Notes: a model not told the origin generated them from the sequence alone. Positions 1 through 53,609 are shown, numbered from the stretch's first letter. The stretch is DNA of 64,000 nucleotides from an uncultured bacterium (GCA_963844835.1 CAWJPT010000003.1:17543-81542); one strand, 5' to 3'. Numbers and translations: made by a program.

Positions 1-562
1 GCACCCTCTCGACATATGGGGCAAACGGCTGGTTGGAGAGGCTGTGGTCATCTTTGATCATGTCGATGCCACCCAGTGCCAGATCAAAAGCCTCGGCGGC
101 GAGACGCTCTGACGAGAGGCCCATCGGCTTGAGGGCAGTGGCCAGCAGAGGGCGCTCCGGTGCATCGAACAGCCGACGCAGACCGGAGATGCCAAACCGA
201 GGCCCCTGGAATCGCGCCAGCAGCGACGGCGGGAGGGTGAAATCGACCAGCCGGATCCCGGGGAGCAGGGCACTGTTGCCCCACAGCACATTCATCAGCT
301 GGGGAAGCTCGAATCCCGTTGTCTCGACCGCGTATGTGACAACCGCACGCGCTCGTGCTTCCCCGACCGGCTCGACAGACTCAACCCGACCAACGATGGA
401 TCGCTGAATGTCATCGTCGGGAACGAGATCGGCGGGAAACTCGATTGTCTGCTCGACGCGTAGCGCATCGGCTCTGGCTCCCGCCTCGGCAACATCGCCG
501 AAGAAGTCGTAAACCGCCTCGATGCGGTCGCCGCTGACTTCGAGGCTCGTGGGCTCGAGCAT
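1..562 (-). CDS. RuBisCO-like protein (form IV RLP), N-terminal ~187 codons; gene runs off the window start
   Basis: Not in the ORF track because it is open at the window edge. My translation from ATG 562..560 reads MLEPTSLEVSGDRIEAVYDFF...GPRFGISGLRRLFDAPERPLLATALKPMGLSSERLAAEAFDLALGGIDMIKDDHSLSNQPFAPYVERV, with no in-frame stop down to position 1. It matches the RuBisCO large-chain block RPLLG..KPKLGLS...GG.D..KDDE..NSQPF, but KPK is KPM and KDDE is KDDH. ATGA start/stop overlap with the upstream transketolase gene. Confidence 0.8.
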   Translation of the reverse strand, partial: MLEPTSLEVSGDRIEAVYDFFGDVAEAGARADALRVEQTIEFPADLVPDDDIQRSIVGRVESVEPVGEARARAVVTYAVETTGFELPQLMNVLWGNSALLPGIRLVDFTLPPSLLARFQGPRFGISGLRRLFDAPERPLLATALKPMGLSSERLAAEAFDLALGGIDMIKDDHSLSNQPFAPYVERV

Positions 563-1569
563 CAGAGGGCCTCGGCCTTCGCAAGGCTGTGCACCGCCTC
601 GATCCTGACCGCTTCCAGATCGGATTCGGTGACGCCGGTCGAGCGGCCGAGTAGCTCTTCGATGCCGCCGATCAGCGCTGGGGCGTCGAGACCGTACTCT
701 CTCATCAAGAACTGCCTGCTGGCACCGTGGGCGTATGTGTCCTCGAGTCCGAGCCGGACCAATCGCTTCCCGACGGCGTTTTCCGCCATGACCTCGGCAA
801 CGGCAGACCCGAGCCCACCGACGATGGTGTGGTTCTCCAGTGTGACCACACCGTGCTTGGCTCGTTTGATCGACTCGAGGATGAGCGGATCACGGAAAGG
901 CTTGTGCGTCGACACATGGATGTGGGTCATCCCCACCCCAGCCCCCGCAAGCGGGGCCGCAGCCCGTATTGCCTCCTCAGTCGTTATCCCTGAAGTGAAC
1001 ACCGTCACATCGTCGCCCTCGCTCAGCACCCGTACCCGGTCGAGCTGCATCGGCTCGTCCTTTGGGAACAGTCTTGGTACCTCGCCGCGCAGCATCCTGA
1101 TATAGACGGGACCGTCGACGGCGTGGGCAACGTCGAGGACACTCTCGACCTCGGTGGCGTCGCCCGTCTCCAGGACGGTCATGTTCGGTGTTGCCCGCAG
1201 GATCGAGATGTCCTCGATGGCCTGGTGGGTGACGCCGCCTGGTGTCGTGATGCCGGGCAAGAAGCCGACGAGCCGCACCGGGAGGTTCGGATATGCGATC
1301 GACATCGCCAGCTGATCGTAGGGGCGGCGATAGATGAACACGGCGAAGGTGTGAATCCACGGCTCGTAGCCCTCGCGAGCGAGACCGGCGGCAAAGCCCA
1401 TCATGTTCTGTTCCGCCATCTTCATCGGGAAGAACCGGTCGGGATAGGTGTCGCGCCAGTTGCCTACCTCGCTCGAGTTGGTGAGATCGGCGGTGAGCAC
1501 CACAACCTCGGGCTTGTCTGCGCTCCAGTCGATGAAGTTCTGGACGTGCGGCCGTTTCACGATCTCCAT
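562..1569 (-). CDS. Transketolase, C-terminal (pyrimidine-binding/C-terminal domain) subunit of a split transketolase
   Basis: 335-aa ORF. Typical split-TK B subunit features: ...VVLTADL..S, GIAEQNM-like MAEQNMMGFAAGLA, THIHVSTHKP. Lies 1 nt after the N-terminal subunit gene. Confidence 0.85.
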   Translation of the reverse strand: MEIVKRPHVQNFIDWSADKPEVVVLTADLTNSSEVGNWRDTYPDRFFPMKMAEQNMMGFAAGLAREGYEPWIHTFAVFIYRRPYDQLAMSIAYPNLPVRLVGFLPGITTPGGVTHQAIEDISILRATPNMTVLETGDATEVESVLDVAHAVDGPVYIRMLRGEVPRLFPKDEPMQLDRVRVLSEGDDVTVFTSGITTEEAIRAAAPLAGAGVGMTHIHVSTHKPFRDPLILESIKRAKHGVVTLENHTIVGGLGSAVAEVMAENAVGKRLVRLGLEDTYAHGASRQFLMREYGLDAPALIGGIEELLGRSTGVTESDLEAVRIEAVHSLAKAEAL

Positions 1570-1570
1570 G

Positions 1571-2470
1571 TCAACTCACCATCTCTTCGTAAACCGCCTC
1601 GTACTGGGCCCTCTCTTCGGGCGAAGTGAATCGCAGGTAGTGCAGCAAGGGGGCACGCTCCCCGAACAGCGGTAGCCCGCGCACCGGGTCGGTGCGGGCG
1701 ATGACGAAGTGCGGCTTGCCGGTATTCATGGTCATGGCTTCGTCGAGGGTGTCGAGCTCGTGGCCGTTGCTCTCGACCGCACTGGCACCGAAGGCGCGGA
1801 TCCGGATCGTCAGGGGATCAGCGGTCTCCACTTCGTCGAGGCATCCGTCACACTGTTGCCCGTTGGCATCGACGATGACACGGAGGTTGTCCAACCCGAA
1901 GCGAGCAATCTGCTCGACCGCTTCCCACGTCTGTCCTTCCTGGAACTCACCATCGGACATCATCACCCAGACCTTGCCCGTGTCGCCGCGGACCTTCCTG
2001 GCGAGGGCGATGCCCCCTGCCTGGCTGAGCGCCTGGGCGAGTGAGCCGGTGGTCGTCTCGACGCCGGGAGAGTGCTCCGCACCGATCATCTCGACGGTGC
2101 TCCCGTCCTCGTTGAAGTGATCCAGCCCGGTCTCGGCAAGCCTGCCCACTTCGATGAGGGTGGCATAGAGCACGAGGGCATAGTGGGCTGGGGAAAAGAT
2201 GAACCGGTCGTACTCGGGCCCTTTCGGGCCGTTGTAGTCGGCGCCTGTGAAGAACGGGACACCGGGGCCGGGCACACCGATGAACTTTCGTGGCTCCAGC
2301 GGAGCCTGGCTCGGGCCGAGGTTCATCACCCGCGAATACAACATGGCGAACATCTCGGCTGACGAACAGGCCTGGCTCATGTAGCCGCCGTTGTTCTTCA
2401 GCACATGCTCGAGCACGCGCCTGCGAATCCCGTCGGCAACCGCCTGGGTGCTTTCCTTCCAATCGCTCAA
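1571..2470 (-). CDS. Transketolase, N-terminal thiamine-diphosphate-binding subunit
   Basis: 299-aa ORF with a TPP-binding GDG-type block (VWVMMSDGEFQEGQTWEA) and GSLAQALSQAGG. Paired with the C-terminal subunit gene. Confidence 0.85.
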   Translation of the reverse strand: MSDWKESTQAVADGIRRRVLEHVLKNNGGYMSQACSSAEMFAMLYSRVMNLGPSQAPLEPRKFIGVPGPGVPFFTGADYNGPKGPEYDRFIFSPAHYALVLYATLIEVGRLAETGLDHFNEDGSTVEMIGAEHSPGVETTTGSLAQALSQAGGIALARKVRGDTGKVWVMMSDGEFQEGQTWEAVEQIARFGLDNLRVIVDANGQQCDGCLDEVETADPLTIRIRAFGASAVESNGHELDTLDEAMTMNTGKPHFVIARTDPVRGLPLFGERAPLLHYLRFTSPEERAQYEAVYEEMVS

Positions 2471-2472
2471 AA

Positions 2473-3549
2473 TCAGCCTCCTTGCTCGAACGCGGCGCGG
2501 ATCGACTGCTCATACGGCGGCTTGAGCACCCCGGCATCGGTGATGATTGCGGTGATCAGCTCGTGGGGGGTCACATCGAATGCCGGATTCCATACCGCGA
2601 TGTCGTCGGGGGCGGTCGGTTCGGACCGCCACCTGGTCATCTCGTGCGCCGGTCTCAGCTCGATCTCTATCTCGGCACCGCTGGCAATCGAGGTATCGAA
2701 CGTCGAAAGCGGGGCAGCAACGTAGAACGGAATCCCGGCGTACTGTGCGTTGACGGCGTGGGTGAAGGTCCCGATCTTGTTTGCGGTATCGCCATTGGCC
2801 GCAATCCGGTCGGCGCCAACGATCACGGCCTCGACCTTCCTCTGCGCCATCGCCGTCGAGCTGGCCCCGTCGGGCATCAGCGTCACGTCGATGCCTGCGT
2901 CGTGCAACTCCCATGTGGTCAGACGGGCTCCCTGGAGGAGCGGACGTGTCTCCGATGAGAGCACGTGGACGGGAAGACCGGCGGCAGCCTTGGCATAGAT
3001 GACCCCGAGTGCGGTCCCCCAGCCTGCCGTAGCAAGCCGGCCGGTGTTGCAGTGGGTCATGATTCTCGTGATCCCGGACAGCTCCTCCATCCCGTACAGC
3101 CCCATCCGGGTGCACGCGTCGCGATCCTCGGCAATGATCGCCTCGGCCTCCTCGAGCGCCAGCATCCGCACCTCGGCGGCGTCACCGCCCGATGAGGCGG
3201 CATCACGAACCCGCTTCACGGCCCAACTCAAGTTGACCGCGGTGGGTCGAGCGTTGCCGATGGTCTCGACGAGCTCGTTCAGGGCCGCCACCGCATCAGC
3301 AGCGGACTCCGGATTGCGCTCATCAAGACCGACAACCATCCCGAGCGCGCCACAAGACCCGATCGCCGGTGCGCCGCGCACAGCAAGCCGGTAGATGACG
3401 TCGACCACCTCGTCAACCGACCGGAGCTGGAGGACCTCCAGCTCCGAAGGCAGCTTGGTCTGGTCGATGATCTCGATGTGATCGTCGACCCATGCCACCG
3501 ATGGCTGCAGCTTGGCGAGAAAGTCGTCGGCGAGCGATGTATCCAACAT
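2473..3549 (-). CDS. mtnA: S-methyl-5-thioribose-1-phosphate isomerase (eIF-2B alpha/beta/delta family)
   Basis: 358-aa ORF. Family hallmarks: RGAPAIG, RPTAVNLSWAV, MTHCNTGRLAT, GADRIAANGDTANKIGT, FDVTPHELITAIITDAG. ATGA overlap with the mtnK stop. Confidence 0.85.
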   Translation of the reverse strand: MLDTSLADDFLAKLQPSVAWVDDHIEIIDQTKLPSELEVLQLRSVDEVVDVIYRLAVRGAPAIGSCGALGMVVGLDERNPESAADAVAALNELVETIGNARPTAVNLSWAVKRVRDAASSGGDAAEVRMLALEEAEAIIAEDRDACTRMGLYGMEELSGITRIMTHCNTGRLATAGWGTALGVIYAKAAAGLPVHVLSSETRPLLQGARLTTWELHDAGIDVTLMPDGASSTAMAQRKVEAVIVGADRIAANGDTANKIGTFTHAVNAQYAGIPFYVAAPLSTFDTSIASGAEIEIELRPAHEMTRWRSEPTAPDDIAVWNPAFDVTPHELITAIITDAGVLKPPYEQSIRAAFEQGG

Positions 3550-4763
3550 CAGCTCAAGACCTCCGTGCTGATACCGCCGAACACCTCATTGGCCTCGGCG
3601 ACCCTCTTCAGGCTGTCGCGCTCCTTGATCCACGTGCTTGCCGTTCTGAGCACCATCGTGGCGGCCTTGACATGCTCCTCATGCGGTAGCTGCTGGATAT
3701 CGGTGACCTTGGCAAGACCGATGATGCGTCTGTTCGCTTTGCAGCCGCCGAAACCGATCGTGTCCTTGGCCACCTGAGCCAGCCATGCGTCGAGGAAACT
3801 GTCGGTCCAGGTCTTGTCGAGACGGTCCGGCCACAACCGGCGCATTTCTGCCTCGAACGCATCCCAGGTCTCGGGCCCGAGGTCGGCAAGCCATTGCTGG
3901 AACTCGGCAGGACGGTCCAGGACCGCAGCTCTGGCCCGGGCGGCCAGATAGTTGCCGAACAATGCGCCGAGGTCGAAGCCAACCGGGCCGTAGTAGCAGA
4001 ACTCCGGGTCGATGACCTTGCACTCGCCACCGTCGGCGCCGTGGCGAACCATCACAGAGCCGGTGTGGAGGTCCCCATGGACCAGCGCCTGTCCTGCGGT
4101 CATGAACTTGTACTTGAGCATCCCGACCTCGGCACGCAATGTGGCGTCTGCCCGCATGCCCTCCACCTCGGGGATCAGCTCGTCGACGTAGCTGTTGTTG
4201 GGAACGTCGATGTACGGTTCGGTGAAGACGAGGTCTTCTGTGATCTTGCACAGCTCGGGGTTGATCGCATCGGCGAGCCGCTGCTTGATCTCTCCCTGGT
4301 CGATCGTGAAGAATGATGTGTAGAAGGCCAGGTTGGCAACGTAACGTCCGAGTTGGGCACCGACGCCGGGGTGGGCAATCCCCTCGTTCAGCTGGGTTCG
4401 CCACATGTCCCAGCCCATGAGATTCTCCATCGCCAGCACGTAGTTGTCCTTGTCAACTCCGTAGTAGGCGGGGACCAGGTCCGGCACATGGTCGGCTGCG
4501 GCGGACAGACCCCTCGCCTCGGCGAGCACCCGCTCGGGAGTGAGCGGCCATCCTTCCCCGACCAACCGTACATAAGGCAGGGATTGCTTCAAGCAGATGC
4601 CGGCGCCGTTTGCATCTTTGCAGACGAAAACCAGATTCAGGTTGCCGTCACCAACCTCGGACACTTCCAGGCTGGATGTGTCGACGATGCCGTCCAGCCG
4701 GGGGGTCTTGTCGATGTATGCCGGGACCGTTTCCGGGGTGAGGATCTCGTACTCGGGGGCCAT
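3549..4763 (-). CDS. mtnK: S-methyl-5-thioribose kinase (aminoglycoside-phosphotransferase-fold sugar kinase)
   Basis: 404-aa ORF. The N-terminus EVGDGNLNLVF, LVHGDLHTGSVM and IDPEFCYYGP are the MtnK signature blocks. Confidence 0.85.
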   Translation of the reverse strand: MAPEYEILTPETVPAYIDKTPRLDGIVDTSSLEVSEVGDGNLNLVFVCKDANGAGICLKQSLPYVRLVGEGWPLTPERVLAEARGLSAAADHVPDLVPAYYGVDKDNYVLAMENLMGWDMWRTQLNEGIAHPGVGAQLGRYVANLAFYTSFFTIDQGEIKQRLADAINPELCKITEDLVFTEPYIDVPNNSYVDELIPEVEGMRADATLRAEVGMLKYKFMTAGQALVHGDLHTGSVMVRHGADGGECKVIDPEFCYYGPVGFDLGALFGNYLAARARAAVLDRPAEFQQWLADLGPETWDAFEAEMRRLWPDRLDKTWTDSFLDAWLAQVAKDTIGFGGCKANRRIIGLAKVTDIQQLPHEEHVKAATMVLRTASTWIKERDSLKRVAEANEVFGGISTEVLS

Positions 4764-4781
4764 CCTTATTCTCCTCCGCTT

Positions 4782-5063
4782 CTACTTCTCTGGGTCGAGC
4801 GCATGAGCGCCCAGCGCGGTTACCTCGATGTCCATCCAGGGGAACAACGGCAGCGAGCTGAGGATCTCATGGAGCTCCTCCGTGCTGTCGACCCGGTAGA
4901 GGGCGTAAACCGCCCGCCGTCCCGGGATTCTCCATATGCGGCGCAGCTTGCCCGCATCGACCAACTCCTGACCACGAACCTTCTCGGCCGCCTTGACTGC
5001 AGCCAGCCGGTCCGGGTCCATGTCCGGGGATATGTTCTGCTCGATGCGGGCAAGGAATTCCAC
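4782..5063 (-). CDS. Muconolactone delta-isomerase family protein (dimeric alpha+beta barrel), function in this context unknown
   Basis: 93-aa ORF. DMDPDRLAAVKAAEK...LRRIWRIPG...LHEILSSLPLFPWMDIEVTAL aligns by eye with CatC (DMDP..LKADEK..LWRIAG..LH..L..LPLFPYMDIEV). Confidence 0.75.
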   Translation of the reverse strand: MEFLARIEQNISPDMDPDRLAAVKAAEKVRGQELVDAGKLRRIWRIPGRRAVYALYRVDSTEELHEILSSLPLFPWMDIEVTALGAHALDPEK

Positions 5064-5065
5064 GC

Positions 5066-5860
5066 TCAGACTCCTACTGGTTGCGCGGCCACCATGGTGT
5101 TGGCCTCATCAGCCGACGCACCGTCGTGGATCACCGCTCGCAGACCCTTGGCGACACCGACCGGGTCATAGTGTTGCCAGATGTTGCGGCCGAGATTGAC
5201 ACCGATGGCGCCACGATCGATACCGTCACGTACGAACGAGAACACCTCGCGGGCGTCGTCGGTCTTCGGACCGCCTGCGATGACCACCGGTGCCGGACAA
5301 GACGAGGTCACCTTCTCGAAATCCTCGCACCAGTAGGTCTTGACGACACGAGCACCCAGCTCGGCAGCGATCCGGCAGCTCAATGCCAGGTAGCGAGCAT
5401 CTCTCTTCTCGAGCTCTTTGCCGACGGCGGTGACTGCCATCACCGGGATACCGTACCGCTCATACAGATTCACGGCGCGGGCCAAGTTGCCGAGCGACTC
5501 GCGCTCATATTCCGAGCCTACGAAAATCGAAATTCCGACCGCCGAGGCACCCATCCTGATGGCTTCCTCGGGGTCGACGACCAACTGCTCGTTCTCCAGT
5601 GAGGGGCCGACGATGCTGGTGCCGCCGCTGATCCTGAGGATCACATTTGGCTTGGTCTCCGGAGGTATCGCATTCCGCAGCACACCCCTGGTGACAAAGA
5701 GGGCGTCTGCAATCGGAGTGAGGTCCTTCACGGTCTCGCCCGGACGCTCCAGCATGCGTGTGGGTCCCAAGAAGTATCCGTGGTCGATGGCCAGGAAGAA
5801 CGCGTGACCCGTCTCGGGTGAGATGAGATCCGCCATCCTGCGCTCCATACCCCAGTCCAT
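5066..5860 (-). CDS. LsrF-like class I aldolase/thiolase (DhnA/FbaB-DeoC family)
   Basis: 264-aa ORF. The blocks DWGMERR...LAIDHGYFLGPT..LERP, TRGVLRNAIPP, VGSEYERES, MAVTAVGKE, RIAAELGARVVKTYW, CPAPVVIAGGPK and GVNLGRNIWQ parallel E. coli LsrF block for block, from my memory of that sequence. This includes the Schiff-base Lys context (I/V)KTY. Confidence 0.8.
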   Translation of the reverse strand: MDWGMERRMADLISPETGHAFFLAIDHGYFLGPTRMLERPGETVKDLTPIADALFVTRGVLRNAIPPETKPNVILRISGGTSIVGPSLENEQLVVDPEEAIRMGASAVGISIFVGSEYERESLGNLARAVNLYERYGIPVMAVTAVGKELEKRDARYLALSCRIAAELGARVVKTYWCEDFEKVTSSCPAPVVIAGGPKTDDAREVFSFVRDGIDRGAIGVNLGRNIWQHYDPVGVAKGLRAVIHDGASADEANTMVAAQPVGV

Positions 5861-5928
5861 GTTCCATCCTCCAATCCCCTGTAATCAGGGGCTAGCTGTC
5901 TTGTTGATCTTGTGTGGCTCGTGGTCCG

Positions 5929-7897
5929 TCAGATAACGCGCTCGTTGCCACCGTCGATCGGGATGTGGGCACCGGTAATCGGGTAGAACACATCGCCGAG
6001 CATGGTGGCAACGACCTCGCCGACGGCAGCACTCGTTATTTCGACACCCATGAGGTTGCGTCGCTTGTACTCCTCGATCGTCATCCCGTAACGGGAGGCC
6101 CGCTCGGCCAGCAGCTCAGGGGTCCACAACGCCGTATCGAAGACGGCGTCGGGATGGACGGAGTTGACCCGGATCCCATCGCCCGCCCACTCGAGGGCCG
6201 CAACCCGCGCAATCTGGTTGGCCGCGGTCTTCGACGCCGAGTATGCGCTCGCACCGGGACCGGGGGCACGCACGTTCTTGGATCCGATGACCGCAACACG
6301 ACCGCCGCCCGGCGCTTGCAGGAGGAGAGGGTGTATCAGCGAGAGCAGCTGAATCAGCCCGTCGACATTGACGGACATGGCTCTGCGCCAGGCGGATGGG
6401 TCGTGTGCGGAGATCGGGGAAGACTCGGGGAAGAGGCCTGCAGCCGCAACCAGCATGTCGACGCCGCCGAATCGCTCGACGCCGACATCGAGAGCCGTCG
6501 CGGTCTGCTCGACCGACGAGAGGTCACACGGGACACCGAGGAAGGCAGGGTCGTCTGTCATCTCACTGACGGCCGGGTTGATGTCGAGCCCGATGACGGC
6601 AGCCCCTCTGGCCAGCAGGGCAAGGGCACAGCCGCGACCGATTCCCGAGTTTGCGCCCGTCACCACGGCGACCTCGCCGGTGAACTCACCTTCGTGGGGG
6701 ACGAGATCGAGCTTGAGCTGCTCCAATTCCCAGTACTCGAAGTCGAACATGTCCTGTGAAGAGAGCGCCGAGTACCCACCGAGACCTTCGGATTGCTCGA
6801 TGACGTCGATGATCTGCAGGTAGATGTCGCCTGCCGCCTGCTCGGCGTCGATGTTGGGCCCCGCCGTGACCATCCCGAACTCAGGGTCGAGGATCACCCG
6901 GGGCGCCGGATCCAGCATGCGCAAGGGTCTCCCCGCTACGTGCGACTCGAAATAGGTGAGGTAGTCCTTGGCGTATGTCCCCACGTCCCGGCCGAGCAGC
7001 GGGACCCGCTTGGTCCAAATCACGTGATCGGGCGTGGCAACGCCTTGTTGGCTGACCACACCGAGATCCGGTCGTTGCGAGAACGCCCAGCTGACGTCGT
7101 CACGATGACGGCGGACGATGCACGGCCTCCCGGCCGCATCCGAGACATCGCGACGTAACCTGGCGAGTTCGACACGGTTGATTTCCGGCGGCCCGCCGGC
7201 CGGGGTGGGTGATTTGCCACCGACCGAATGAGCCGCCAGGTAAGCCTCTGCGGCCGAAATGAGATCGACCATACGTTCATAGGCGACGTGCGGCGTCTCC
7301 CCGAAGGTGAAGATGCCGTGGTTCATCAGCACGACGGCCTCTGTCTCGTCTGTCGCCGATTCGGCGTAGGCGCGCGCTGCCGCGGTGGCGACTCTGAAGC
7401 CGGACATCGCATACGGAACCACGACGGCCCTTTCACCGTATAGCTCCCTTACCCGGTCTTCACCGTTGACGGTGTTTGAGATTGCCAGCAGGGCGTTTGG
7501 GTGAGCATGCTGCACCGCCGTTTCCGGGATGACGGCGTGGAGGATCGCTTCGACCGAGGGGTTGGCTGCGGTCACGTCGAGCCGGGCGCCCTTCAGCTCG
7601 TTGAGCATCGCGGTGTCGGATAGGTCGTCGAGCTCAACGAGTCGTCGCACCCGATTGAGATCGAGCGGGGAGAACCCTTCGACCTCGATGTCGGCGAGGT
7701 CCCATCCGCTCGCCTTCACATAGAGCACGTCGATCGGCTCTCCGTAGAGATTCCGCTCGGAGACCTTCACCGACGTGTTGCCACCACCGTGGAGCACCAG
7801 GGTTCGTATCGGCCCCCAGGAGCTTCGAGGCGTATACGCACTCCTCGAGCAGGCCTTCACAGGCCGCTGCCTGCTCCTCGTTCCACCGGTTCTGCAT
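5929..7897 (-). CDS. Bifunctional class II aldolase/adducin-domain + short-chain dehydrogenase (rhamnulose-1-phosphate aldolase/SDR type); frame broken near 7800-7815
   Basis: ORF 5929..7860 carries LVLHGGGNTSVKV (aldolase domain) and a C-terminal SDR (VAVVTGANSGIGRG, YSASKTA). The true N-terminus MQNRWNEEQAAACEGLLEECVYASKLLGAD lies in ORF 7634..7975 (ATG at 7897). The two frames join at a C/G run around 7805. Confidence 0.75.
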
Positions 7898-7925
7898 ATC
7901 TGCCTCTAGCTCCTTCGACCCACCG

Positions 7926-9042
7926 CTATTCGGTTTCGGCGAACTCGGGATACATCGCCAGAATCGACTCTTCACTTGCCTCGCTGATGCCGCGCTCGGT
8001 GATGATCCCGGTCACGTAGCGGCGCGGCGTCACGTCGAAGCCGAAGTTGGCGGCACCGACGCCTGGAGCAGCGGTCTGCGGCTCCACCTGTCTGCCGTCG
8101 AGCCACCCGGTGGTCTTGGTGACCTCGTGGCCTCCACGCTCCTCGATAGGGATCTCGGCTACGCCGTCGTGGAGCTTCGGATCGAGCGTGCTCGACGGCA
8201 GTGCCGCATAGAAAGGAACGCCGTTCTCCTTGGCGACGACGGCCTTCATGTAGGTGCCGATCTTGTTGGCAACGTCACCGCTGATCGTCGTGCGGTCGCT
8301 ACCGACGATGACCATGTCCACCATGCCGTGCTGGAGCAGGTGACCGGCGGCGTTGTCGGCGATGACGGTGAGCGGGATGCCTGCCTGATTGAGCTCCCAA
8401 GCGGTCAACCTGGCGCCCTGGTTGCGTGGGCGCGTCTCCGATACGTAGACGTGGATCGGGATACCCTCGGCGTGGGCCGCGTACATCGGGGCGGTCGCAG
8501 TGCCGTGCTCGACGAACGCCAACCAGCCGGCATTGCAGTGAGTCATGATGTTGACCGTCTCACCCTTGCGCCGGTAGATGTCCTCGATGACGCCGAGCCC
8601 GTGCTGTCCGATCGCGGCACAGTAGGCGACGTCCTCGTCGGCAATGGTTTCCGCCAGGGCTTTCGCTCTGGAGATCCGCTCGGCAGCATCTTCGATGCCG
8701 AGGATCTCTTTGAGCTGCCGTTGCACTGCCCAGGTGAGGTTGACCGCGGTGGGCCGACTCGCCTCCAGCTCGGTACCGGCGGCTCGCAGCGAGGCGTCGG
8801 CGTCGGCAGCGCCCATTCCGCCGCGTGGCCAGCGCGGCGAGGTACATGCCGTACCCGGCGGACACTCCGATGCACCCGGCACCGCGCACCACCATGTCGG
8901 CGATGACAGTGGTCATCTCCCCCGAGGTGCGGATGGATACTTCTTGATATTCGAAAGGCAGAAGCCGCTGGTCGATACAGACGACGGAGGTTGGGTCGTC
9001 CCGGTCGATCCAGATGGTCCTGTTCGCCGGCGTCTTGCTCAT
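7926..9042 (-). CDS. Second eIF-2B-family sugar-phosphate isomerase (MtnA / 5-deoxyribose-1-P isomerase / R15P-isomerase-like paralog); frame broken near 8820-8840
   Basis: The N-terminus MSKTPANRTIWIDRDDPTSVVCIDQRLLPFEYQEVSIRT...VVRGAGCIGVSAGYGMYLAAL is in ORF 8560..9042. The remainder (RPTAVNLTWAV, MTHCNAGWLA, GSDRTTISGDVANKIGT, FDVTPRRYVTGIITERG) is in ORF 7926..8882. ATGA overlap with the permease stop. Confidence 0.75.
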
Positions 9043-10103
9043 AGCGGAACCGCCGCCTGGAATCGTTGCTTGCGCCGGGAGAGGGTGAACGAGAAGATCA
9101 GCGCGACCAGTAGCACGAAGCCTTTCACGACGTCTTGCCAGTAGTACTGGAAGTTCATCATCGTGGTGCCGGTGAGCAGGATGCCGATGAGGATGGCACC
9201 GAGCGACGTGCCGAACGCGTTCGGCTTCCCCACCCCGAGCACCGAGGTACCAACCAGAGCCACCGCCACGGCATCGAGCAGCAGGGAGTTACCTGCCGAG
9301 ATGTCGCCCTGGCCGATCCGGGACGCCAGGATCAAACCGGCAATGGATGCGTAGATGCCGGAGAGCATGTAGGCGAATGCCTGGTAGCGGCCGACCCTGG
9401 CACCGGCAAGGCGGGCCGCTTCGGGGTTGGTGCCGATGGCGTACATGACCCGGCCCCACTTGGTCCGGGAGAGCAGGAACCAGGTGAAGATGGCCAGTAC
9501 CGCAAAGATGATCACCGGGTACGGGACCGGTCCGATCGAGCCACGGTTGATCTCGAGAAACCCGGGCGTGAACTTGCCGGGCGCTACCGTGCCGTCGCGG
9601 AGGATCAAACCGGACGACACCGACTGTCCGTCCACCGGCACGAGTTTCAGGCCCTGCACCAGGAACATCGTTGCCAGCGTGGCGAGCAAGTCGGGGATCT
9701 TGAGCACGACGATCAGAGTTGCGTTGAAGGCTCCGATGATGGCGCCTGCGGCGATGACGGCGGCCACGGCCACCGAGCCCTGCTGGGCGTAGATCACCAT
9801 CGTCATTGCAGCCACAGTGACCGACATGCCTGCGGTCGCTCCCACAGAGAGGTCGAGTCCACCGACCACCATGGTGACGGTTACTCCCAGCCCGGCTACG
9901 GCTACCACCGAGATGTACTTCAACATCGTGAACATCGTCGAAGAAGTCCGGAAAGCAGGGATCGTCGCCATGAAGTACACGAGGAAGATCACCGTGACGG
10001 CGATGAAGCCGTACTTGACGAGCAAGTCGCGCGCGTCTGCCCGGGGCCTCGGTTGCGCCTCTCCCTTCTTCTCGTTTTTCGGCGTCATGGTTGTTGTGGC
10101 CAC
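9039..10103 (-). CDS. Sugar ABC transporter permease (RbsC/branched monosaccharide type)
   Basis: 354-aa highly hydrophobic ORF of the multi-TM RbsC/AraH type. Directly abuts the ATPase stop (10104). Confidence 0.85.
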   Translation of the reverse strand: MATTTMTPKNEKKGEAQPRPRADARDLLVKYGFIAVTVIFLVYFMATIPAFRTSSTMFTMLKYISVVAVAGLGVTVTMVVGGLDLSVGATAGMSVTVAAMTMVIYAQQGSVAVAAVIAAGAIIGAFNATLIVVLKIPDLLATLATMFLVQGLKLVPVDGQSVSSGLILRDGTVAPGKFTPGFLEINRGSIGPVPYPVIIFAVLAIFTWFLLSRTKWGRVMYAIGTNPEAARLAGARVGRYQAFAYMLSGIYASIAGLILASRIGQGDISAGNSLLLDAVAVALVGTSVLGVGKPNAFGTSLGAILIGILLTGTTMMNFQYYWQDVVKGFVLLVALIFSFTLSRRKQRFQAAVPL

Positions 10104-11610
10104 TTACTCAACCTCCGAGAGTCGTTGCAGGATCTGGTCCCTGCTGGTCTCCGACAGATATGTATCAAGCCGGAGATTTCCGTCCGCGAGCACAACGACC
10201 CGGTCGGAAACTTCCATGATTTCTTCCAAGTCCGTCGACATGACGATGACCGCAGAGCCGGTCTCCGCAACCTCCCTGGCCTTCTCTGCCAGGTCGTGAC
10301 GAGCACCGACGTCGACACCCTGGAACGGTTCGTTCAGCACCATCACCGTCGGGTGTTTACGCAACCATCGACCGACGACGACCTTCTGCTGGTTGCCACC
10401 CGAGAGGGACATGACCGACTCGGCCTCCGACTGGGCAACAACACCGAAATCGTCGATGACGGCTCGCCCTACCTTCGCCTCGGCCATCGGGTTGAGGACA
10501 CCAAAGCGGGAGATCTCGTTGAGGAATGGGAATGTCGAGATCATGGAGACGGACCACTTCTTGATGAGGGTGCCTTCGGCGCGATCCTCCGGAACCATGT
10601 AGACCTCGGATGCGATAGCGTCGGCAGGCGCCTTGGGAGCGAATGGCTTGCCCTTCAGGATCATCTCGCCACCCTCGAAGGGATCAGCGCCGAAGATGCC
10701 TCGGGCCAGCTGACTCCCACCGGACCCGAGCAGCCCGAAGACACCGGTTACCTCTCCGGCTCGCAGGGAAAAATCAAATGGTGTGGATTTGGGGAGCAGC
10801 TGCACACCTTTGAGCAGCAGCACTTCTTCGGTGCCCCGCAGTTCGACCGCACGATTGGTCCGGTCTGCCTCGTCGACGTCGAGCATCACGTGGAGTGCGG
10901 TCTCCCAATCAAATGGGCGGTCATGATCGCTGAGAATGACCCCGTCACGCAGCACGAGCAGACGATCTGCGATCTTGTCGATCTCCGCAATGCGGTGGGA
11001 AACGTAGAAGATGGCGACCCCGTCGTCGCGGAGTCGGCGGATGACGCCGAAAAGACGGTTCGGCCTCGGTCTCGGAGAGCGCCGACGTCGGCTCGTCGAG
11101 GATGAGCAGCCGGGGCTCGTGTACGAGGGCCCTGGCGAGGAGAAGCAACTGCTGATCGGCGATCGGCAGCTCGTACACATCGCTCCGCAACAGCTCGTCC
11201 GACCAGCCGAGATCGAGGACGGCCGCCACTTCCCTCGCTCTTGGCATGAGGGATCGCAGCGATGCCGCTCTCGGGACCTGATTGTTGACGATCCCCTCGA
11301 AGAGGAGATTCTCGGCGACGCTGAGACCGGGGACGACCCCGTCGGCGATCTTCTGGTGGACAGCCTCGATGCCATGGGCGTGCGCCGTGGTTGGATGATC
11401 GATGTATACGGGGACACCACCAATGATGACGGTGCCCCCATATCCGTTGTATACGCCCGAGAGAACTTTGATGAGTGTCGACTTGCCGGCGCCGTTGGCA
11501 CCGAGCATGGCGGTCACCTTCCCCGGCTCGATGGCAAGGTCGATCCCTTTCAGGACCTCATTGGGCCCAAAGGCCATCGTGATGCCCTCCATCCGGACTG
11601 CGGGTTCCAT
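10104..11610 (-). CDS. Sugar ABC transporter ATP-binding protein with two nucleotide-binding domains (RbsA/LsrA type); frame broken near 11060
   Basis: NBD1 (GANGAGKST, LLILDEPTSAL) is in ORF 10945..11691, starting at ATG 11610 (MEPAVRMEGI). The rest of NBD1 plus NBD2 (FYVSHRIAEI, LSGGNQQK, LNEPFQGVD) is in ORF 10104..11501. Confidence 0.8.
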
Positions 11611-12827
11611 CAAACGCTCCTTCTCAGGCTCTCGAATCGCGTCACGAGGAGGAGGTGGCCGTCGGGAGGGGGGATCCCGACGGCCACCCACAGATCTCCT
11701 AGAACTGTGATCGACGGGATCCAGTCGGCGGACTGGACGTCGGCCAGGTTCAGTGCAGGCAGAGCCGCCCGCAGGTCAACCATGTTCGTGATGTTGTTGT
11801 CGAGCAGGAACTGCTGGGTGACGAGCACACCAGGGAAATCAACCGAGCGTGGGCCCTGCTGCCCGGCGAGCTCGAGCGCCATGGTCCGCATCACGGCTGC
11901 ACCGATCGCGTTCGGGTCGGTGGTCGCCGTAGCCTTCCACGGGCTGCCATCGGCAGTCATGACCTCGATGTCGGCATTCGAGATGTCGATGCCGTAGGCC
12001 CAGATGTCCGCGGCGAGACCGTTGTCGTTGATCGCCGACACTGTGCCCTTGGTCAACTCGTCGTACGGAGCGAAGATCGCCCTGACATCCGGGTTTGCCT
12101 TGAGCGCGGCATCGACCAGCTGTGCGTTGTCGGTGGCGACTGCGTTGGTGAACTCACCGACGAAGAAGACCTGGTCCCAGTTGTTGTCTGCCACGTACTG
12201 CTGCCAGACCACATGCCTGCGATCGAGCGGGGCGATACCGAGCACGTTGACATAGCCAACCCTCTGATCCGGGCCGATGTCGGCGAGCATCTGTCCGAGG
12301 GACAGGTCGGCGAGGCTGGCGTCGGACTGCTGGGTCTGAACTGCGTTCGGGGCACACTCTGCGATCGCGATGTCATAGATGACAACGGGGATGCCTGCAT
12401 TGAGCGCATCGTTGATCAGCGGGCACATGGTATCGGTCTGGCCGTGATCGACGACGATGCCGTCGACACCTGAGCCGATGGCCGTCTCCATGTCGGTGGC
12501 CTGCTTGGCATTGTCGGCCTGAGCGTCGTACCAGGTGTACTTGATACCGATTGCGTCAGCCTGCTGCTTGGCACCGTTGGTCCACTGCTGGAAGTAGTCG
12601 CCAGCACCGCTGTTCTGCACAACGGCAATGTTCACCTCACCGTCAAAGGGTGCAGGCATCGTGACACCGGCTGCGGTGGTCTCCGTCGTCCCCTGATCAG
12701 CTGCGGTCGTCGTTGTCGTGGTCTCTTCGGTGCTCTGGGAACACGCCGCGGTCAATAGGGCGAAGGCAACGAGGATGACCCCGAGCCAGATACCCCTCCG
12801 CGGGCTTGTCCTCATACTCTTACTCAT
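11610..12827 (-). CDS. Sugar ABC transporter substrate-binding lipoprotein (periplasmic-binding-protein type I)
   Basis: Start chosen at MSKSMRTSPRRGIWLGVILVAFALLTAAC (lipobox LTAAC), followed by a Thr-rich linker and a PBP fold. The last ~35 codons read through a perfect hairpin and look non-native, so the true stop may be an out-of-frame TAG near 11700. Confidence 0.75.
   Translation of the reverse strand: MSKSMRTSPRRGIWLGVILVAFALLTAACSQSTEETTTTTTAADQGTTETTAAGVTMPAPFDGEVNIAVVQNSGAGDYFQQWTNGAKQQADAIGIKYTWYDAQADNAKQATDMETAIGSGVDGIVVDHGQTDTMCPLINDALNAGIPVVIYDIAIAECAPNAVQTQQSDASLADLSLGQMLADIGPDQRVGYVNVLGIAPLDRRHVVWQQYVADNNWDQVFFVGEFTNAVATDNAQLVDAALKANPDVRAIFAPYDELTKGTVSAINDNGLAADIWAYGIDISNADIEVMTADGSPWKATATTDPNAIGAAVMRTMALELAGQQGPRSVDFPGVLVTQQFLLDNNITNMVDLRAALPALNLADVQSADWIPSITVLGDLWVAVGIPPPDGHLLLVTRFESLRRSV
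11654..11688 (-). promoter_or_regulatory. Intercistronic 14-bp perfect stem-loop between the SBP and ATPase genes
   Basis: GGTGGCCGTCGGGA (11654-11667) and TCCCGACGGCCACC (11675-11688) around a 7-nt G-rich loop. This is the typical position for SBP-mRNA stabilising or attenuating hairpins in ABC importer operons. Confidence 0.5.
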
Positions 12828-12890
12828 CTTGCTCCTTCCGGCTAATGGCGTCTCACTCCTGTGGCTGGGTTTGCCAACCGCACGCCACTT

Positions 12891-12924
12891 GCACAAATGT
12901 GCACCAATGCACACAAGTGCACAA
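12891..12924 (-). promoter_or_regulatory. Operator-like array of four T(T/G)GTGCA repeats at 8-10 bp phasing upstream of the importer/catabolic operon
   Basis: The minus strand reads ATTGTGCAC TTGTGTGCA TTGGTGCAC ATTTGTGCAAG, 64-97 nt upstream of the SBP start. It is locally AT-rich in a GC-rich genome. Confidence 0.35.
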
Positions 12925-13036
12925 TACATTGCGCGGGTAGTGCTGGCAACTCAAAGTATCGCGATTGGCTGATATGACGGCAACGGCCGCGGGGCATAGT
13001 TGGTGATCGAACAATGGCCGATATGGCCACTTCGAT

Positions 13037-13528
13037 CTAGAGGTCGAGGACCATCACAGACGAATCGCCGTCGTCGCCGATCAGCACATAGCCAAGCGAT
13101 TCGTAGAGTCTCCTGGCAGGGTTCGGGTTGTTCACCGAGAGACTCAGCCGGGTGATTCCTTCTTGGCTAGCGACCGCGGCAAGCCCATCCATGAGCCTGC
13201 GGCCGATCCCCATCCCCCGGTACGCCGCCACGATCCCGATGCCGACTTCCGGTGTCTGGTCGTCCACGTAACCGTGGCCGTGGTTGTCTTCGGTGAACAG
13301 CCGGGCAAAGGCCGCCCCGATCAGTTGACCATCGAGGACCGCTCTGACCCCGATATCGCCCGGCCGACCCCAACCCTCGTAGTACGACCTCACCTCGAGG
13401 TTCGCCATGACGGTTGCCATGTCGGGGAAGCCGGGCGGGTCGTTCCACGACAGCGCCAGATAGAGCGCGAGCTGAACCGCATCGACATCGTCTGCTCCCA
13501 GCCGGGAGACGGATACCCGATCAGTCAC
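13037..13528 (-). CDS. GNAT family N-acetyltransferase
   Basis: 163-aa ORF with the acetyl-CoA motif YRGMGIGRRLM and a NPARRLYESLGY tail. Confidence 0.8.
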   Translation of the reverse strand: MTDRVSVSRLGADDVDAVQLALYLALSWNDPPGFPDMATVMANLEVRSYYEGWGRPGDIGVRAVLDGQLIGAAFARLFTEDNHGHGYVDDQTPEVGIGIVAAYRGMGIGRRLMDGLAAVASQEGITRLSLSVNNPNPARRLYESLGYVLIGDDGDSSVMVLDL

Positions 13529-15248
13529 GGTTCACTCCCACGATCGCGGGGGCCTCCCCGTTGCCCTCGGCCTCGGTCTCCCAGAGGTCACGGAACTCGG
13601 GACTGGTCTCTAGCAGGTCGGTTAGTTTGCCTGCCGCCACCACCCGGCCCTCGTCGAGGACGACGATCTGATCGGCTCGCTGCAGCGCGGGCCTGCGATG
13701 CGACACGACGAGCGCCGTCGACTCCGAGTGCTCGGCAAAGAGCCGCTCCCACAGCGTCTTCTCCGTGTCGACGTCGAGCGCGCTCGAGAGATCGTCGAAA
13801 ACCAACAGCTCCGGATTCCTGACGAACATCCGGGCGGCCGCAGTACGTTGTACTTGTCCTCCCGACAGCCTCATCCCGAGCGGACCGACCAGCGTGTCCA
13901 GCCCATGTGGCATCGAGCCAACGTCGCGATCGAGCGCCGCCGAGCGAATTGCCACATCCAGATCGACATCCTCGTCGTCTCTGCCCAGCAGCAGGTTCTC
14001 ACGCAGTGTCATCGAGAACAGCTTGGGAACCTGTGGCGTGTATGCCGAGCGCGGTGGCACGAAGAAGTTCGCCGGGTCATCAACGATCTCACCGTTCCAG
14101 CTGACGGTCCCACGGTCGACGGAGACGAGGCCGAGGATGGATCGCAGCAGCGTTGTCTTGCCGGAGCCGATCTTGCCGGTGAGCACGGTGAAGCTACCCC
14201 GCTCGAGGGTCAGGTCGACGTGCTCGATGCCGTTGCTCGTGCCGGGATACCGGAAGCTCATATCGGCTACCTCGAGGCGATCGAGGCGAGCGTCTGCAAC
14301 CGGTTCGTCGAACCTCGGCAAGTCACCGGTCAGATACAGGTCACGTCTCTGCACCAGGACGTCGGGATCGTCGGTCTGCAGCAGCGCATGCATCCTCTCA
14401 AAGGACACGCCCGCTTGTTTGAAGCGTGCGATGAAAGCGCCAATGAACCAACCCGCATCCGTGACGAAGCCGAGAAAGTAGACGAACAGGGCGAACTCGC
14501 CGATGGTGAGCCCGCCCGGCCTGCCGAAGTTGCCCGAGGCAACGATCAGGATCAACCCGGTGCCGATGCTGAGCGTGTTCCAGAAAACGGACTCGAGCGT
14601 TGCAGTGAGCACCTTGTCCCGCACCATCATCTTGCGGCGCTCCTTGTTGAGCCGCTTGAAGTGCTCGATCATCGGCGCCTCGACCCCGGCGACCTTGATC
14701 GACTGCACCGCGCCGAACATCTCACCGAGCGCCCCGGTGATTCTCTCCGTGGCCTCGCGTGCCGCGTTGCGGTAGCGGCGGATCCTGGTACCCGCCCGCT
14801 CTGCAATCACCACCATGAACAGAAGCGGGGCAAACACCAGCACGGTCATCCCGGCGTTGATCGATGTGAGAATCACCGCGGCGATGATGCCGAAGAGCGC
14901 GGTGCCGATCAGGTCGACGGTCATGCTCGTCGCCTCCTCGACATGCTCGACGTCCTCACGGAACCGGCTGATGATCTCCCCGGATGCTTCCTTGACCGAC
15001 TGTGCTCCCGGCAGCTCGAAGACACGCTCCAGCATGTTGCGCCTGAGCGTCGAGCTGACCCGGAACATGAAATGCACGTCGTTCCACATGGCGGTGAACA
15101 TCACCGCAAGCCGGGTCGCACCGTAGGCGAGCAGGAGCGCGATCAACGTGCCGGGGTTGAACCCGGCCGTGCCGAGACCGTCGAAGAAGCGTCTCGTGAT
15201 CAGCGCGGGGATGACCGGGAGGATCCAGATCGTCGCCCACAGGAACAC
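13521..15248 (-). CDS. ABC exporter, fused permease/ATPase half-transporter (MsbA/MdlB type), partner 2
   Basis: 575-aa ORF with six-TM region plus NBD (GKIGSGKTTL, LSGGQVQR, LLVFDDLSSALD). The in-frame N-terminal extension SHDAWHLVKAAPRRYAAN has no start codon. An ATG with an ATGA overlap to the upstream gene (15334) is in another frame, so a probable indel lies at 15250-15330. Confidence 0.8.
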   Translation of the reverse strand: MFLWATIWILPVIPALITRRFFDGLGTAGFNPGTLIALLLAYGATRLAVMFTAMWNDVHFMFRVSSTLRRNMLERVFELPGAQSVKEASGEIISRFREDVEHVEEATSMTVDLIGTALFGIIAAVILTSINAGMTVLVFAPLLFMVVIAERAGTRIRRYRNAAREATERITGALGEMFGAVQSIKVAGVEAPMIEHFKRLNKERRKMMVRDKVLTATLESVFWNTLSIGTGLILIVASGNFGRPGGLTIGEFALFVYFLGFVTDAGWFIGAFIARFKQAGVSFERMHALLQTDDPDVLVQRRDLYLTGDLPRFDEPVADARLDRLEVADMSFRYPGTSNGIEHVDLTLERGSFTVLTGKIGSGKTTLLRSILGLVSVDRGTVSWNGEIVDDPANFFVPPRSAYTPQVPKLFSMTLRENLLLGRDDEDVDLDVAIRSAALDRDVGSMPHGLDTLVGPLGMRLSGGQVQRTAAARMFVRNPELLVFDDLSSALDVDTEKTLWERLFAEHSESTALVVSHRRPALQRADQIVVLDEGRVVAAGKLTDLLETSPEFRDLWETEAEGNGEAPAIVGVNRD

Positions 15249-15330
15249 GTTTGCCGCGTAGCGCCGCGGGGCGGCCTTGACCAGATGCCACGCATCATGC
15301 GAATCGTTGGTAGTTGGGATCGACGGGTTG

Positions 15331-27694: not shown

Positions 27695-28583
27695 ATGAAG
27701 ATTGGCTACGCCGGAATGGGAATCATGGGCCGGGGCATGGCCGCCAACCTCATCAGGGCAGGCCACGACGTCACCGTATGGAACCGGACCGCGGAGCGAG
27801 CCGAACCGCTCGCGCCGCCGGGGCATCTGTCGCCGCGACTCCAGCCGAGCTCGCCGCATCCTGCGACATCATCATGATGTGTGTTTCGGATACCCCCGAC
27901 GTCGAGGCGGTCACACTCGGAGACGAGGGTCTCATCAATGGGCTCGGCGAGGGCAAGCTGGTGGTCGACCACTCGACGATCAGCGCGTCGGCAACCCGCA
28001 AGCTCGCCGAGGCGGTCGCCGCGGTCGGAGCCTCGTGGGTGGACGCCCCGGTGAGCGGCGGCAGTGAGGGCGCCGAGCGCGGGACGCTGGCGATCATGGT
28101 CGGTGGCGATGCGGACCGATGTCGAGCGGGTGCAGCCGTATCATGGAGGCGTACGGCACGAGCATCACCCATGTCGGACCGGTCGGCGCCGGGCAGATGG
28201 TCAAGCAGGTCAATCAGGTGCTGGTGGTGATCAACGGTCTCGCCGTCTCCGAGGCGTTGTTGCTCGCCAAGGCGGGAGGGCTCGACCTCGACGCCACCAT
28301 CGAGGCGGTCAAGGGCGGCGGCGCCGGGTCATGGATGCTGGCCAACCGGGGACCACAGATCGTCGACCGTGACTGGCGGCCCGGCTTCACCATCGACCTC
28401 CAGCAGAAGGACCTCCGCCTCGTTCTCGAATCTGCAGACGAGCTGGCTGTGCCGCTGCCGGCAACGAGCCTCGTGTTTCAGATGTACCGGGCGCTGCAGC
28501 GACGCGGCCTCGGGGCAGAAGGCAACCATGCCCTGGTGAAGGCCCTGGAGGAGCTAGCGGGCCTCGAGGTGACGCGGGAGTAG
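27695..28583 (+). CDS. NAD(P)-dependent 3-hydroxyisobutyrate/2-hydroxy-3-oxopropionate reductase family oxidoreductase; two frame breaks (~27800, ~28110)
   Basis: [19 protein letters not shown] (27695), then [22 protein letters not shown] (ORF 27778..), then [11 protein letters not shown]...[10 protein letters not shown] (ORF 28119..28583). Confidence 0.75.
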
Positions 28584-37611: not shown

Positions 37612-37615
37612 GCTT

Positions 37616-53605: not shown

Positions 53606-53609
53606 CAAC

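Follow-up and report, generated by a model that had tools for sequence, protein, structure and literature searches.

We describe a twelve-gene operon at positions 1-12929 of a 64,000-nt stretch of DNA from an uncultured bacterium (GCA_963844835.1 CAWJPT010000003.1:17543-81542, hereafter the window) that joins a sugar importer to a methylthioribose-type kinase and isomerases, a RuBisCO-like protein (RLP), a split transketolase, a homologue of LsrF and an aldolase fused to a short-chain dehydrogenase/reductase (SDR). Gene families called with Pfam and NCBIfam models bear out the original prediction, made from the sequence alone, of twelve consecutive genes on the minus strand, and agree with the names it had given them. 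Listed from the window edge, against the direction of transcription, the genes are:

1-562, minus strand: RLP, N-terminal part (187 of 375 aa), running off the window edge; PF00016
562-1569, minus strand: C-terminal transketolase subunit (TK-C), with Pyr and C domains; PF02779 and PF02780
1571-2470, minus strand: N-terminal, thiamine diphosphate (ThDP)-binding transketolase subunit (TK-N) of a non-canonical subfamily; PF00456
2473-3549, minus strand: MtnA, methylthioribose-1-phosphate isomerase; TIGR00512, 413 bits (cutoff 279)
3549-4763, minus strand: MtnK, methylthioribose kinase; TIGR01767, 400 bits (cutoff 275)
4782-5063, minus strand: muconolactone-isomerase (MIase)-fold protein of 93 aa; PF02426, 106 bits; PDB 1mli, 64 bits
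5066-5860, minus strand: LsrF-like DhnA-type class I aldolase/thiolase; NF006081 (LsrF equivalog), 329 bits (cutoff 297)
5929-7897, minus strand: class II aldolase-SDR fusion of RhaEW architecture; PF00596 and PF00106; NF006196, 867 bits (cutoff 831)
7926-9042, minus strand: second MtnA-type isomerase (isomerase-2); TIGR00512, 334 bits (cutoff 279) for the C-terminal piece
9039-10103, minus strand: CUT2-family ATP-binding cassette (ABC) permease; PF02653, the best match being the ribose permease model
10104-11610, minus strand: ABC ATPase with two ATP-binding domains, from three-frame translation; 501-502 aa in relatives
11610-12827, minus strand: periplasmic binding protein, probable lipoprotein; PF13407

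The junctions between these genes are tight, consisting of overlaps or short gaps. ATGA overlaps had been claimed at four of them, and that between the permease stop and the isomerase-2 start is real and the sole one among the operon junctions; the mtnK/mtnA and TK-C/RLP junctions are TGATG overlaps of 1 nt, and the apparent overlap of the binding-protein and ATPase genes is artefactual, because a 1-nt insertion at ~11707 extends the open reading frame (ORF) across a real gap of ~88 nt. For the binding protein ATG 12827, not 12929, is the most probable start, and it would give a signal peptide ending ...LTAAC. Two putative control elements lie upstream of this start:

12949-12921, minus strand: promoter-like TTGCCA-17-TATTGT, the sole sigma-70-like site in 1-13600
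12923-12890, minus strand: four TG[TC][GA]CA hexamers at ~8-10-bp spacing, candidate operator, running on from the promoter-like site

The hexamer cluster is unique in the 64 kb, was reproduced in none of 200 shuffles and is kept upstream of the binding-protein gene in relatives. With the only promoter-like site and this unique array both upstream of the binding-protein gene, the earlier view of the operon as a single transcription unit stands. An Rfam scan of 1-14000 found no riboswitch or other RNA family, and a terminator scan gave matches no commoner than in shuffles and none within the intergenic gaps. The 68-nt spacer between the aldolase-SDR and lsrF genes holds a hairpin, CCCCTG-ATTA-CAGGGG (5876-5891, minus strand), just 5' of the lsrF ribosome-binding site; the sequence flanking it, AGCTAGCCCC, is kept in relatives, and one of these (L018) has a TGTGCA-type hexamer cluster at the corresponding spot.

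The order of the operon is conserved in Acidimicrobiia, more than by chance. A scan with the LsrF-like protein as query and one genome per species found 22 Acidimicrobiia-type loci (74-97% identity to that protein), 12 of which have every gene in place between binding protein and RLP, while two more (L005, L015) agree up to the contig end and the remainder are shorter contig-truncated fragments or true variants; a 2.84-Mb contig whose genes were called independently (L085) likewise carries the operon intact. Versions of 5, 8 and 12 genes exist. The 8-gene version (L022) is without the importer and isomerase-2, and the 5-gene version is without the transketolase and the RLP, both of which are missing from L012 and L017. 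The operon is therefore built of three modules: the importer with isomerase-2; a core of the aldolase-SDR, LsrF-like, MIase-fold, MtnK and MtnA genes; and the transketolase with the RLP. This modularity had been missed, as had the genes left of the window edge, which we read from the relatives' loci: beyond the edge all relatives have a convergent SorC-family regulator (PF04198), an RbsD/FucU-family protein and an EamA permease, and these three genes are present even with the 5-gene version. Over its full length the SorC regulator shares 26% identity with E. coli YjhU; its identity to LsrR is 28%. YjhU has been renamed MtnR and represses the operon of the dihydroxyacetone phosphate (DHAP) shunt, lying 'downstream and opposing' that operon (PMC12632272). 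The hexamer array makes a good candidate operator for this regulator, in agreement with a single transcription unit.

Four 1-nt insertions relative to relatives, located by three-frame translation and DNA alignment with the three closest genomes, disrupt window genes that had been taken to be uninterrupted:

~11707, minus strand: 1-nt insertion at the 3' end of the binding-protein gene, prolonging its ORF to 11610
~11063, minus strand: 1-nt insertion in the ATPase gene, seen in the DNA alignment
~8824, minus strand: 1-nt insertion in the isomerase-2 gene, also in L003
~7804, minus strand: 1-nt insertion in the aldolase-SDR gene, placing the N-terminus MQNRWNEE... in another frame

The TAG stop of the binding protein is still present at 11701-11699 (the C-terminus in relatives is ...WIPSIEF followed by the stop), and the real start of the aldolase-SDR gene is ATG 7897, not GTG 7860. 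Elsewhere the same genes are intact, the ATPase in L003 and L085 (501-502 aa), isomerase-2 in L004, L009 and L085 (371 aa) and the aldolase-SDR in L085 (655 aa). Four frame-disrupting insertions in 13 kb, one of them also present in the closest relative L003, could be taken to mean that the cluster is decaying in this organism, with 4 of its 12 genes pseudogenes. We judge such decay decidedly unlikely, and the insertions look like assembly errors rather than gene decay, because related long-read soil metagenome-assembled genomes each show their own, different frameshifts in other operon genes, because split or chimeric genes are spread over the whole 64 kb, because the ratio of nonsynonymous to synonymous divergence is 0.02-0.13 in all operon gene segments, on both sides of each break, and because the 2.84-Mb contig holds the operon with every gene intact. 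The isomerase-2 segment is nearly identical between the window and L003 (proportion of synonymous differences, pS, 0-0.05), and the insertion common to them could be inherited or a systematic error.

Across the window, a survey of split genes by ORF overlap listed same-strand ORF pairs resembling frameshift-split genes at 27778-28583, 31645-33264, 36934-38098, 42196-45106, 50544-52080, 52568-54572 and 55605-56307. Among these, 31645-33264 joins half of a transporter to an NAD-epimerase as a chimera, and 55605-56307 holds the two pieces of one OmpR-type response regulator (55605-56000 and 56008-56307). Overall, an indel error rate of ~1 per 4-6 kb is suggested for the assembly; a frame plot of third-position GC content was too noisy to use for counting frameshifts window-wide. 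The synonymous divergence of the window from L003 is itself a mosaic, with pS 0.00-0.08 in the isomerase-2, mtnK, mtnA and transketolase genes and 0.24-0.48 in the binding-protein, ATPase, permease and lsrF genes, which suggests recent recombination within the operon between related populations.

The importer and the first two enzymes indicate the substrate. The best PDB sequence match of the binding protein is 4ry8, entitled '5-methylthioribose transporter solute binding protein TLET_1677 from Thermotoga lettingae', at 187 bits and 35% identity, versus ~40 bits and ~20% identity for ribose binding proteins, and the same entry ranks first in structural comparison of its AlphaFold model (predicted local distance difference test score, pLDDT, 83), with a template-modelling (TM) score of 0.91 and a root-mean-square deviation of 1.5 Å. 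Against LsrB the binding protein scores ~27 bits (24% over 186 aa by BLAST, E 1e-5), and against 5ibq, which we take to be a D-apiose binding protein, the search output itself naming no ligand, ~40 bits. MtnK and both MtnA-type isomerases exceed the cutoffs of their equivalog models (scores as listed above), so that by sequence the operon has the kinase and the isomerase of the DHAP shunt. On the strength of the proximity to 4ry8 and of these equivalog-level matches 5-methylthioribose is most likely the substrate, and the exogenous methylthioribose/5-deoxyribose-type compound originally proposed is upheld by the binding protein's closest structural and sequence relative. The known kinases and isomerases of the MtnK/MtnA type are promiscuous (PMC6079011, PMC12632272), on which analogy 5-deoxyribose would probably be an additional substrate. 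Calling an importer behind such genes a novelty was an overstatement, as 4RY8 is itself a precedent, and both the importer and the RbsD/FucU neighbour are foreshadowed by the 5-deoxyribose clusters of Beaudoin 2018, which contain sugar transporters and a fucose-mutarotase homologue (PMC6079011).

A different pentose-like substrate, for instance D-ribose (by way of ribose-1-phosphate and ribulose-1-phosphate), autoinducer-2/4,5-dihydroxy-2,3-pentanedione (AI-2/DPD), or D-apiose, would draw on several features of the locus. The CUT2 importer, the SorC regulator and the LsrF homologue resemble the lsr system, the RbsD/FucU-family neighbour passes the RbsD-type pyranase model (101 bits versus a cutoff of 93), and D-apiose routes contain RLPs and split transketolases. 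We nevertheless consider such a substrate improbable: by score the binding protein resembles the methylthioribose type much more than LsrB, ribose binding proteins or 5ibq, a kinase of the FGGY LsrK type is missing from the operon, the apiose OiaX model gives the RLP 74 bits where its cutoff is 700, and MtnK and MtnA exceed their equivalog cutoffs. Two specific systems were set aside as candidates, namely the D-apiose route, on the OiaX score, the MtnK identity of the kinase and the ~40-bit match to 5ibq, and the AI-2/lsr system, on the missing FGGY kinase, a MIase-fold protein unlike LsrG and a poor match to LsrB.

The RLP, whose 3' end is missing from the window, was recovered in full as a 375-aa protein (P0025) that agrees exactly with the window's 187 residues. 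Among solved structures it is closest to 3qfw ('Rubisco-like protein from Rhodopseudomonas palustris'), at 258 bits where the next match has 143, with 40% identity, a TM score of 0.91 and the KDDH and ALKP motifs in common; 3qfw is distinct from R. palustris rlp2 (2qyg). The single DeepYkr RLP of R. palustris, RLP1, is a methylthioribulose-1-phosphate 1,3-isomerase, and RLP2 of that species belongs to the Photo clade (PMC5893883). An RLP homologue 83% identical to that of the operon carries the JGI name S-methyl-5-thioribulose 1-phosphate isomerase. A grouping of the RLP with the Rhodopseudomonas/Rhodospirillum DeepYkr type is supported by these comparisons, and its putative function would be that of a methylthioribulose-1-phosphate 1,3-isomerase. 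The RLP falls short of the MtnW enolase model (197 bits, cutoff 409), and the operon is without MtnB, MtnC, MtnD and MtnX genes; the universal methionine salvage pathway was rejected on both counts, as had been anticipated.

The RLP is closely tied to the split transketolase, whose C-terminal subunit has the split transketolase 6yaj of Carboxydothermus as its best PDB match (213 bits). In all Acidimicrobiia loci that have the pair an overlap links the TK-C stop with the RLP start; the transketolase and the RLP are present or absent together, both being missing from L012 and L017. The linkage extends beyond this clade, the genes being adjacent in two bacterial lineages, 5.5 kb apart in a third and fused in diatoms. 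The second lineage with adjacent genes is an unrelated one of 51% GC (L089, 1-14534), in which MtnA-like, Bmp-type ABC importer, amidohydrolase, Cupin_5, TK-N, TK-C and RLP genes occur together and an aldolase-SDR fusion lies divergently beside them; its TK-N bears an extra 208-aa N-terminal region, its Bmp-family importer is of nucleoside type, and its Amidohydro_1 protein is possibly a nucleoside deaminase. A Nitrospirota-like locus (L087, 1982-18647) has an unsplit 661-aa transketolase of the same subfamily adjoining MsrA, with an RLP (51% identical) 5.5 kb downstream and Cys/Met-metabolism pyridoxal phosphate enzymes upstream. Finally, a search of 1.8 billion representatives returned diatom polypeptides of RLP-TK-N-TK-C order, in Conticribra weissflogii (1130 aa, P0393) and Discostella pseudostelligera (1066 aa, KAL3762590.1), which are 43-46% (RLP), 51-54% (TK-N) and 56-57% (TK-C) identical to the window proteins and retain the NNGGY motif; identities of 43-57% suggest gene transfer between bacteria and diatoms. 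Such adjacency and fusion, evidence of the Rosetta-stone type, argue that the transketolase acts on or with the product of the RLP, a 1-substituted xylulose-5-phosphate.

The transketolase itself is altered at its active site. In 16 of 16 orthologues TK-N has NGGYMSQ instead of SGHPG, which replaces the first catalytic histidine by Tyr, and in the same 16 the GHP histidine is missing, a 27-aa insertion is present and SDG stands in place of GDG. In yeast and human transketolase these two histidines contact the C1-OH and C3-OH of the donor. Their loss would fit a donor without a C1 hydroxyl. Neither the operon itself nor the 10 kb on either side of it in L085, where it is intact, was found to encode a cupin methylsulfurylase, and by analogy with the Rhodospirillum route the transketolase would stand where the cupin would be. 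We regard this coupling of RLP and transketolase, which had not been singled out originally, as the strongest novelty of the locus.

The core module holds the two remaining candidate outlets. The aldolase-SDR passes NF006196 but misses the RhaEW model TIGR02632 (387 bits versus a cutoff of 568), which places it in a sister subfamily, and no rhamnose genes were found near it. RhaEW converts rhamnulose-1-phosphate to DHAP and L-lactate and needs its dehydrogenase domain for aldolase activity (PMC3870299). The LsrF-like protein, which passes the LsrF equivalog model, is 44% identical to E. coli LsrF and is followed directly by the MIase-fold gene in all Acidimicrobiia loci, with a spacer of 2-5 nt; the pair is kept in the 5-gene version. 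BLAST of the MIase-fold protein against LsrG gave no sequence similarity; presumably the two share a fold superfamily. Homologues of the LsrF-like protein with 63-70% identity occur in Chloroflexota, Nitrospirota, Planctomycetota, Desulfobacterota and others (L025-L082), and in 46 of 57 loci from other phyla the gene is followed by that of a Zn-dependent medium-chain dehydrogenase, a widespread pair for which, as far as we found, no function has been assigned. Four Planctomycetia/Omnitrophota loci (L029, L030, L032, L035) have the order MtnA-like, class II aldolase, aldehyde dehydrogenase, LsrF-like, dehydrogenase. Together with the 46 loci these four show the LsrF-like enzyme repeatedly paired with a dehydrogenase and DHAP-shunt-type genes. 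The Planctomycetia/Omnitrophota operon corresponds to the functional set of the Acidimicrobiia core, as separate genes; in L029 (3375-11847) the tightly packed genes are those of an SDR, a B12-binding radical S-adenosylmethionine (SAM) protein, an amidohydrolase, an MtnA-like protein, a class II aldolase, an aldehyde dehydrogenase, an LsrF-like protein and a Zn-dehydrogenase.

These comparisons bear on the simplest account of the locus, a plain DHAP shunt with an importer, in which the transketolase, RLP, LsrF-like and MIase-fold genes would be unrelated housekeeping genes on the same transcript, for instance a transketolase of the pentose-phosphate pathway and a class I aldolase. The existence of a 5-gene version without transketolase and RLP and of an 8-gene version without the importer is as such an account would have it, and the LsrF-like homologues of 63-70% identity are found in many phyla beyond the operon context. 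It is rendered doubtful by the non-canonical active-site residues of the transketolase, which are kept across the clade, by the co-occurrence or fusion of transketolase and RLP in four separate lineages, by the LsrF-MIase adjacency, invariant in Acidimicrobiia loci and kept in the minimal 5-gene version, and by the recurrence of LsrF-like genes beside MtnA-like and aldolase genes in the Planctomycetia-type loci.

We propose instead, with moderate confidence and by reasoning from the gene families, that the operon serves the substrate-inducible uptake and the catabolism or salvage of 5-methylthioribose, and probably of 5-deoxyribose, by way of a branch point with three outlets. In the absence of substrate, the SorC-family repressor encoded convergently just past the window would probably bind the hexamer array of the promoter, and its release by a phosphorylated intermediate would make the operon substrate-inducible. 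The CUT2 importer, with its binding protein of the methylthioribose subfamily, would take up the sugar, which MtnK would phosphorylate at C1 and MtnA, together with the transporter-linked isomerase-2, would convert to the 5-substituted ribulose-1-phosphate. This ketose-1-phosphate would be the branch point, feeding the aldolase-SDR, the RLP with the transketolase, and the LsrF-like enzyme with its MIase-fold partner. By analogy with RhaEW, the aldolase-SDR may cleave it to DHAP and (methylthio)acetaldehyde or acetaldehyde and then oxidise the aldehyde, amounting to a DHAP shunt with an integral aldehyde step. In the second outlet the DeepYkr-type RLP would move the carbonyl to give 1-methylthio-xylulose-5-phosphate, or 1-deoxy-xylulose-5-phosphate from the 5-deoxy sugar, and the non-canonical transketolase may split this xylulose-5-phosphate analogue into glyceraldehyde-3-phosphate and a ThDP-bound C2 unit, which in the case of the methylthio compound could lose methanethiol in a phosphoketolase-like elimination, the transketolase thereby standing in for the Rhodospirillum cupin methylsulfurylase. 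The substrate of LsrF is 3-hydroxy-2,4-pentanedione-5-phosphate, which it cleaves with coenzyme A (CoA) to DHAP and acetyl-CoA. Oxidation of 5-deoxyribulose-1-phosphate at C4 by a dehydrogenase would yield the same diketone, and the LsrF-like enzyme with its MIase-fold partner could then process it to DHAP and acetyl-CoA (or methylthioacetyl-CoA); CoA-dependent cleavage of the diketone is the most likely role for the LsrF-like protein, put forward with low confidence. The entry steps are well supported by homology, and the three outlets, above all the transketolase and LsrF chemistry, are inferred.

In its boldest form this model holds that the RLP and the histidine-depleted transketolase constitute a two-enzyme module that has so far gone unrecognised, spans Acidimicrobiia, Nitrospirota-like bacteria and diatoms, and releases methanethiol without cupin or glutathione, and that an LsrF-type thiolase with a dehydrogenase converts 5-deoxyribulose-1-phosphate to DHAP and acetyl-CoA; we offer this only tentatively. 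Several points weigh against the model as a whole. It looks redundant for one intermediate to have three outlets, and the model does not account for the presence of two isomerases. RbsD-type pyranases need a free 5-OH, which methylthioribose and 5-deoxyribose do not have, so that an anomerase activity would have to be assumed for the RbsD/FucU-family protein. The aldolase-SDR lies below the RhaEW equivalog cutoff, and its substrate and redox direction are guesses; the LsrF step would depend on a putative dehydrogenase for its oxidised diketone; and the elimination of methanethiol by a transketolase is drawn from chemical analogy only. Furthermore, the RLP is just 40% identical to the nearest solved DeepYkr member, and the isomerase-2 frameshift, common to the two closest genomes, could be real in this sublineage.

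Directly upstream of the operon on the same strand, at 13037-17070, lie a GNAT acetyltransferase gene and two ABC exporter-type genes, whose synteny is limited to the closest relatives (L003, L004) and which are not considered part of it. Further into the window, 45453-46829 encodes a protein of the beta-eliminating lyase family (PF01212).

Methylthioadenosine (MTA) and 5'-deoxyadenosine are unavoidable and inhibitory by-products of SAM chemistry, and their sugars reach the environment. With a dedicated high-affinity system Acidimicrobiia, which abound in soils, sediments and waters, would harvest carbon, and perhaps sulfur, from the SAM waste of other cells. If true, the model would mean that the by-product sugars of SAM are handled by two new enzymatic routes and that LsrF homologues have a physiological role beyond quorum sensing. 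The locus offers testable roles for DeepYkr-type RLPs that have no cupin partner, for a transketolase subfamily with an altered active site, and for LsrF homologues in organisms without AI-2 processing, and the diatom fusion of RLP and transketolase brings eukaryotic phytoplankton into the same question. There are precedents for the substrate class and for the importer, kinase, isomerase and RLP type; the new chemistry is conjecture. In the freely available full-text literature we found no described pathway that joins these parts, in keeping with the original prediction; what is undescribed in the context of SAM by-product sugars is the split transketolase with the RLP, and the LsrF-like/MIase pair.

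Among known systems the operon is first to be compared with the DHAP shunt (MtnK/MtnA/Ald2 in R. rubrum and extraintestinal pathogenic E. coli; DrdK/DrdI/DrdA in Bacillus thuringiensis), with which it has in common the kinase, the MtnA-type isomerase, the class II aldolase domain and a SorC/DeoR-type repressor that is downstream and convergent, as is E. coli MtnR; some published clusters of that shunt also contain sugar transporters and a FucU homologue. It differs in that its aldolase is fused to an SDR in the manner of RhaEW, whereas Ald2 and DrdA stand alone, and in seven extra genes: isomerase-2, the LsrF-like and MIase-fold proteins, the two transketolase subunits, the RLP and the specific ABC set. 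The MTA-isoprenoid shunt of R. rubrum and R. palustris (MtnP, MtnA, DeepYkr RLP, cupin) likewise contains MtnA and a DeepYkr-type RLP; the operon instead has entry through MtnK and an importer, not MtnP, and in place of the cupin a split transketolase translationally coupled to the RLP. The Lsr AI-2 system (LsrACDB, LsrK, LsrR, LsrF, LsrG) resembles it in the CUT2 importer, the SorC-family regulator, the LsrF homologue and the small alpha+beta protein encoded right after the latter, as lsrG follows lsrF, but the operon's kinase is of the MtnK rather than the FGGY type, its binding protein is of the methylthioribose type rather than LsrB, its small protein belongs to the muconolactone-isomerase family, and a dehydrogenase would be needed to reach the diketone. 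RhaEW (YuxG, L-rhamnulose-1-phosphate aldolase/L-lactaldehyde dehydrogenase) matches the fusion in its two-domain architecture and in having a deoxy-ketose-1-phosphate as its class of substrate, yet the fusion belongs to the NF006196 subfamily, below the RhaEW cutoff, and has no rhamnose genes around it. Tlet_1677 (4RY8) is the best match of the binding protein in both sequence and structure, at an identity of only 35%. Taken together, the operon holds the entry steps common to the DHAP and MTA-isoprenoid shunts and, for each shunt, one of its hallmark enzymes in a modified version.

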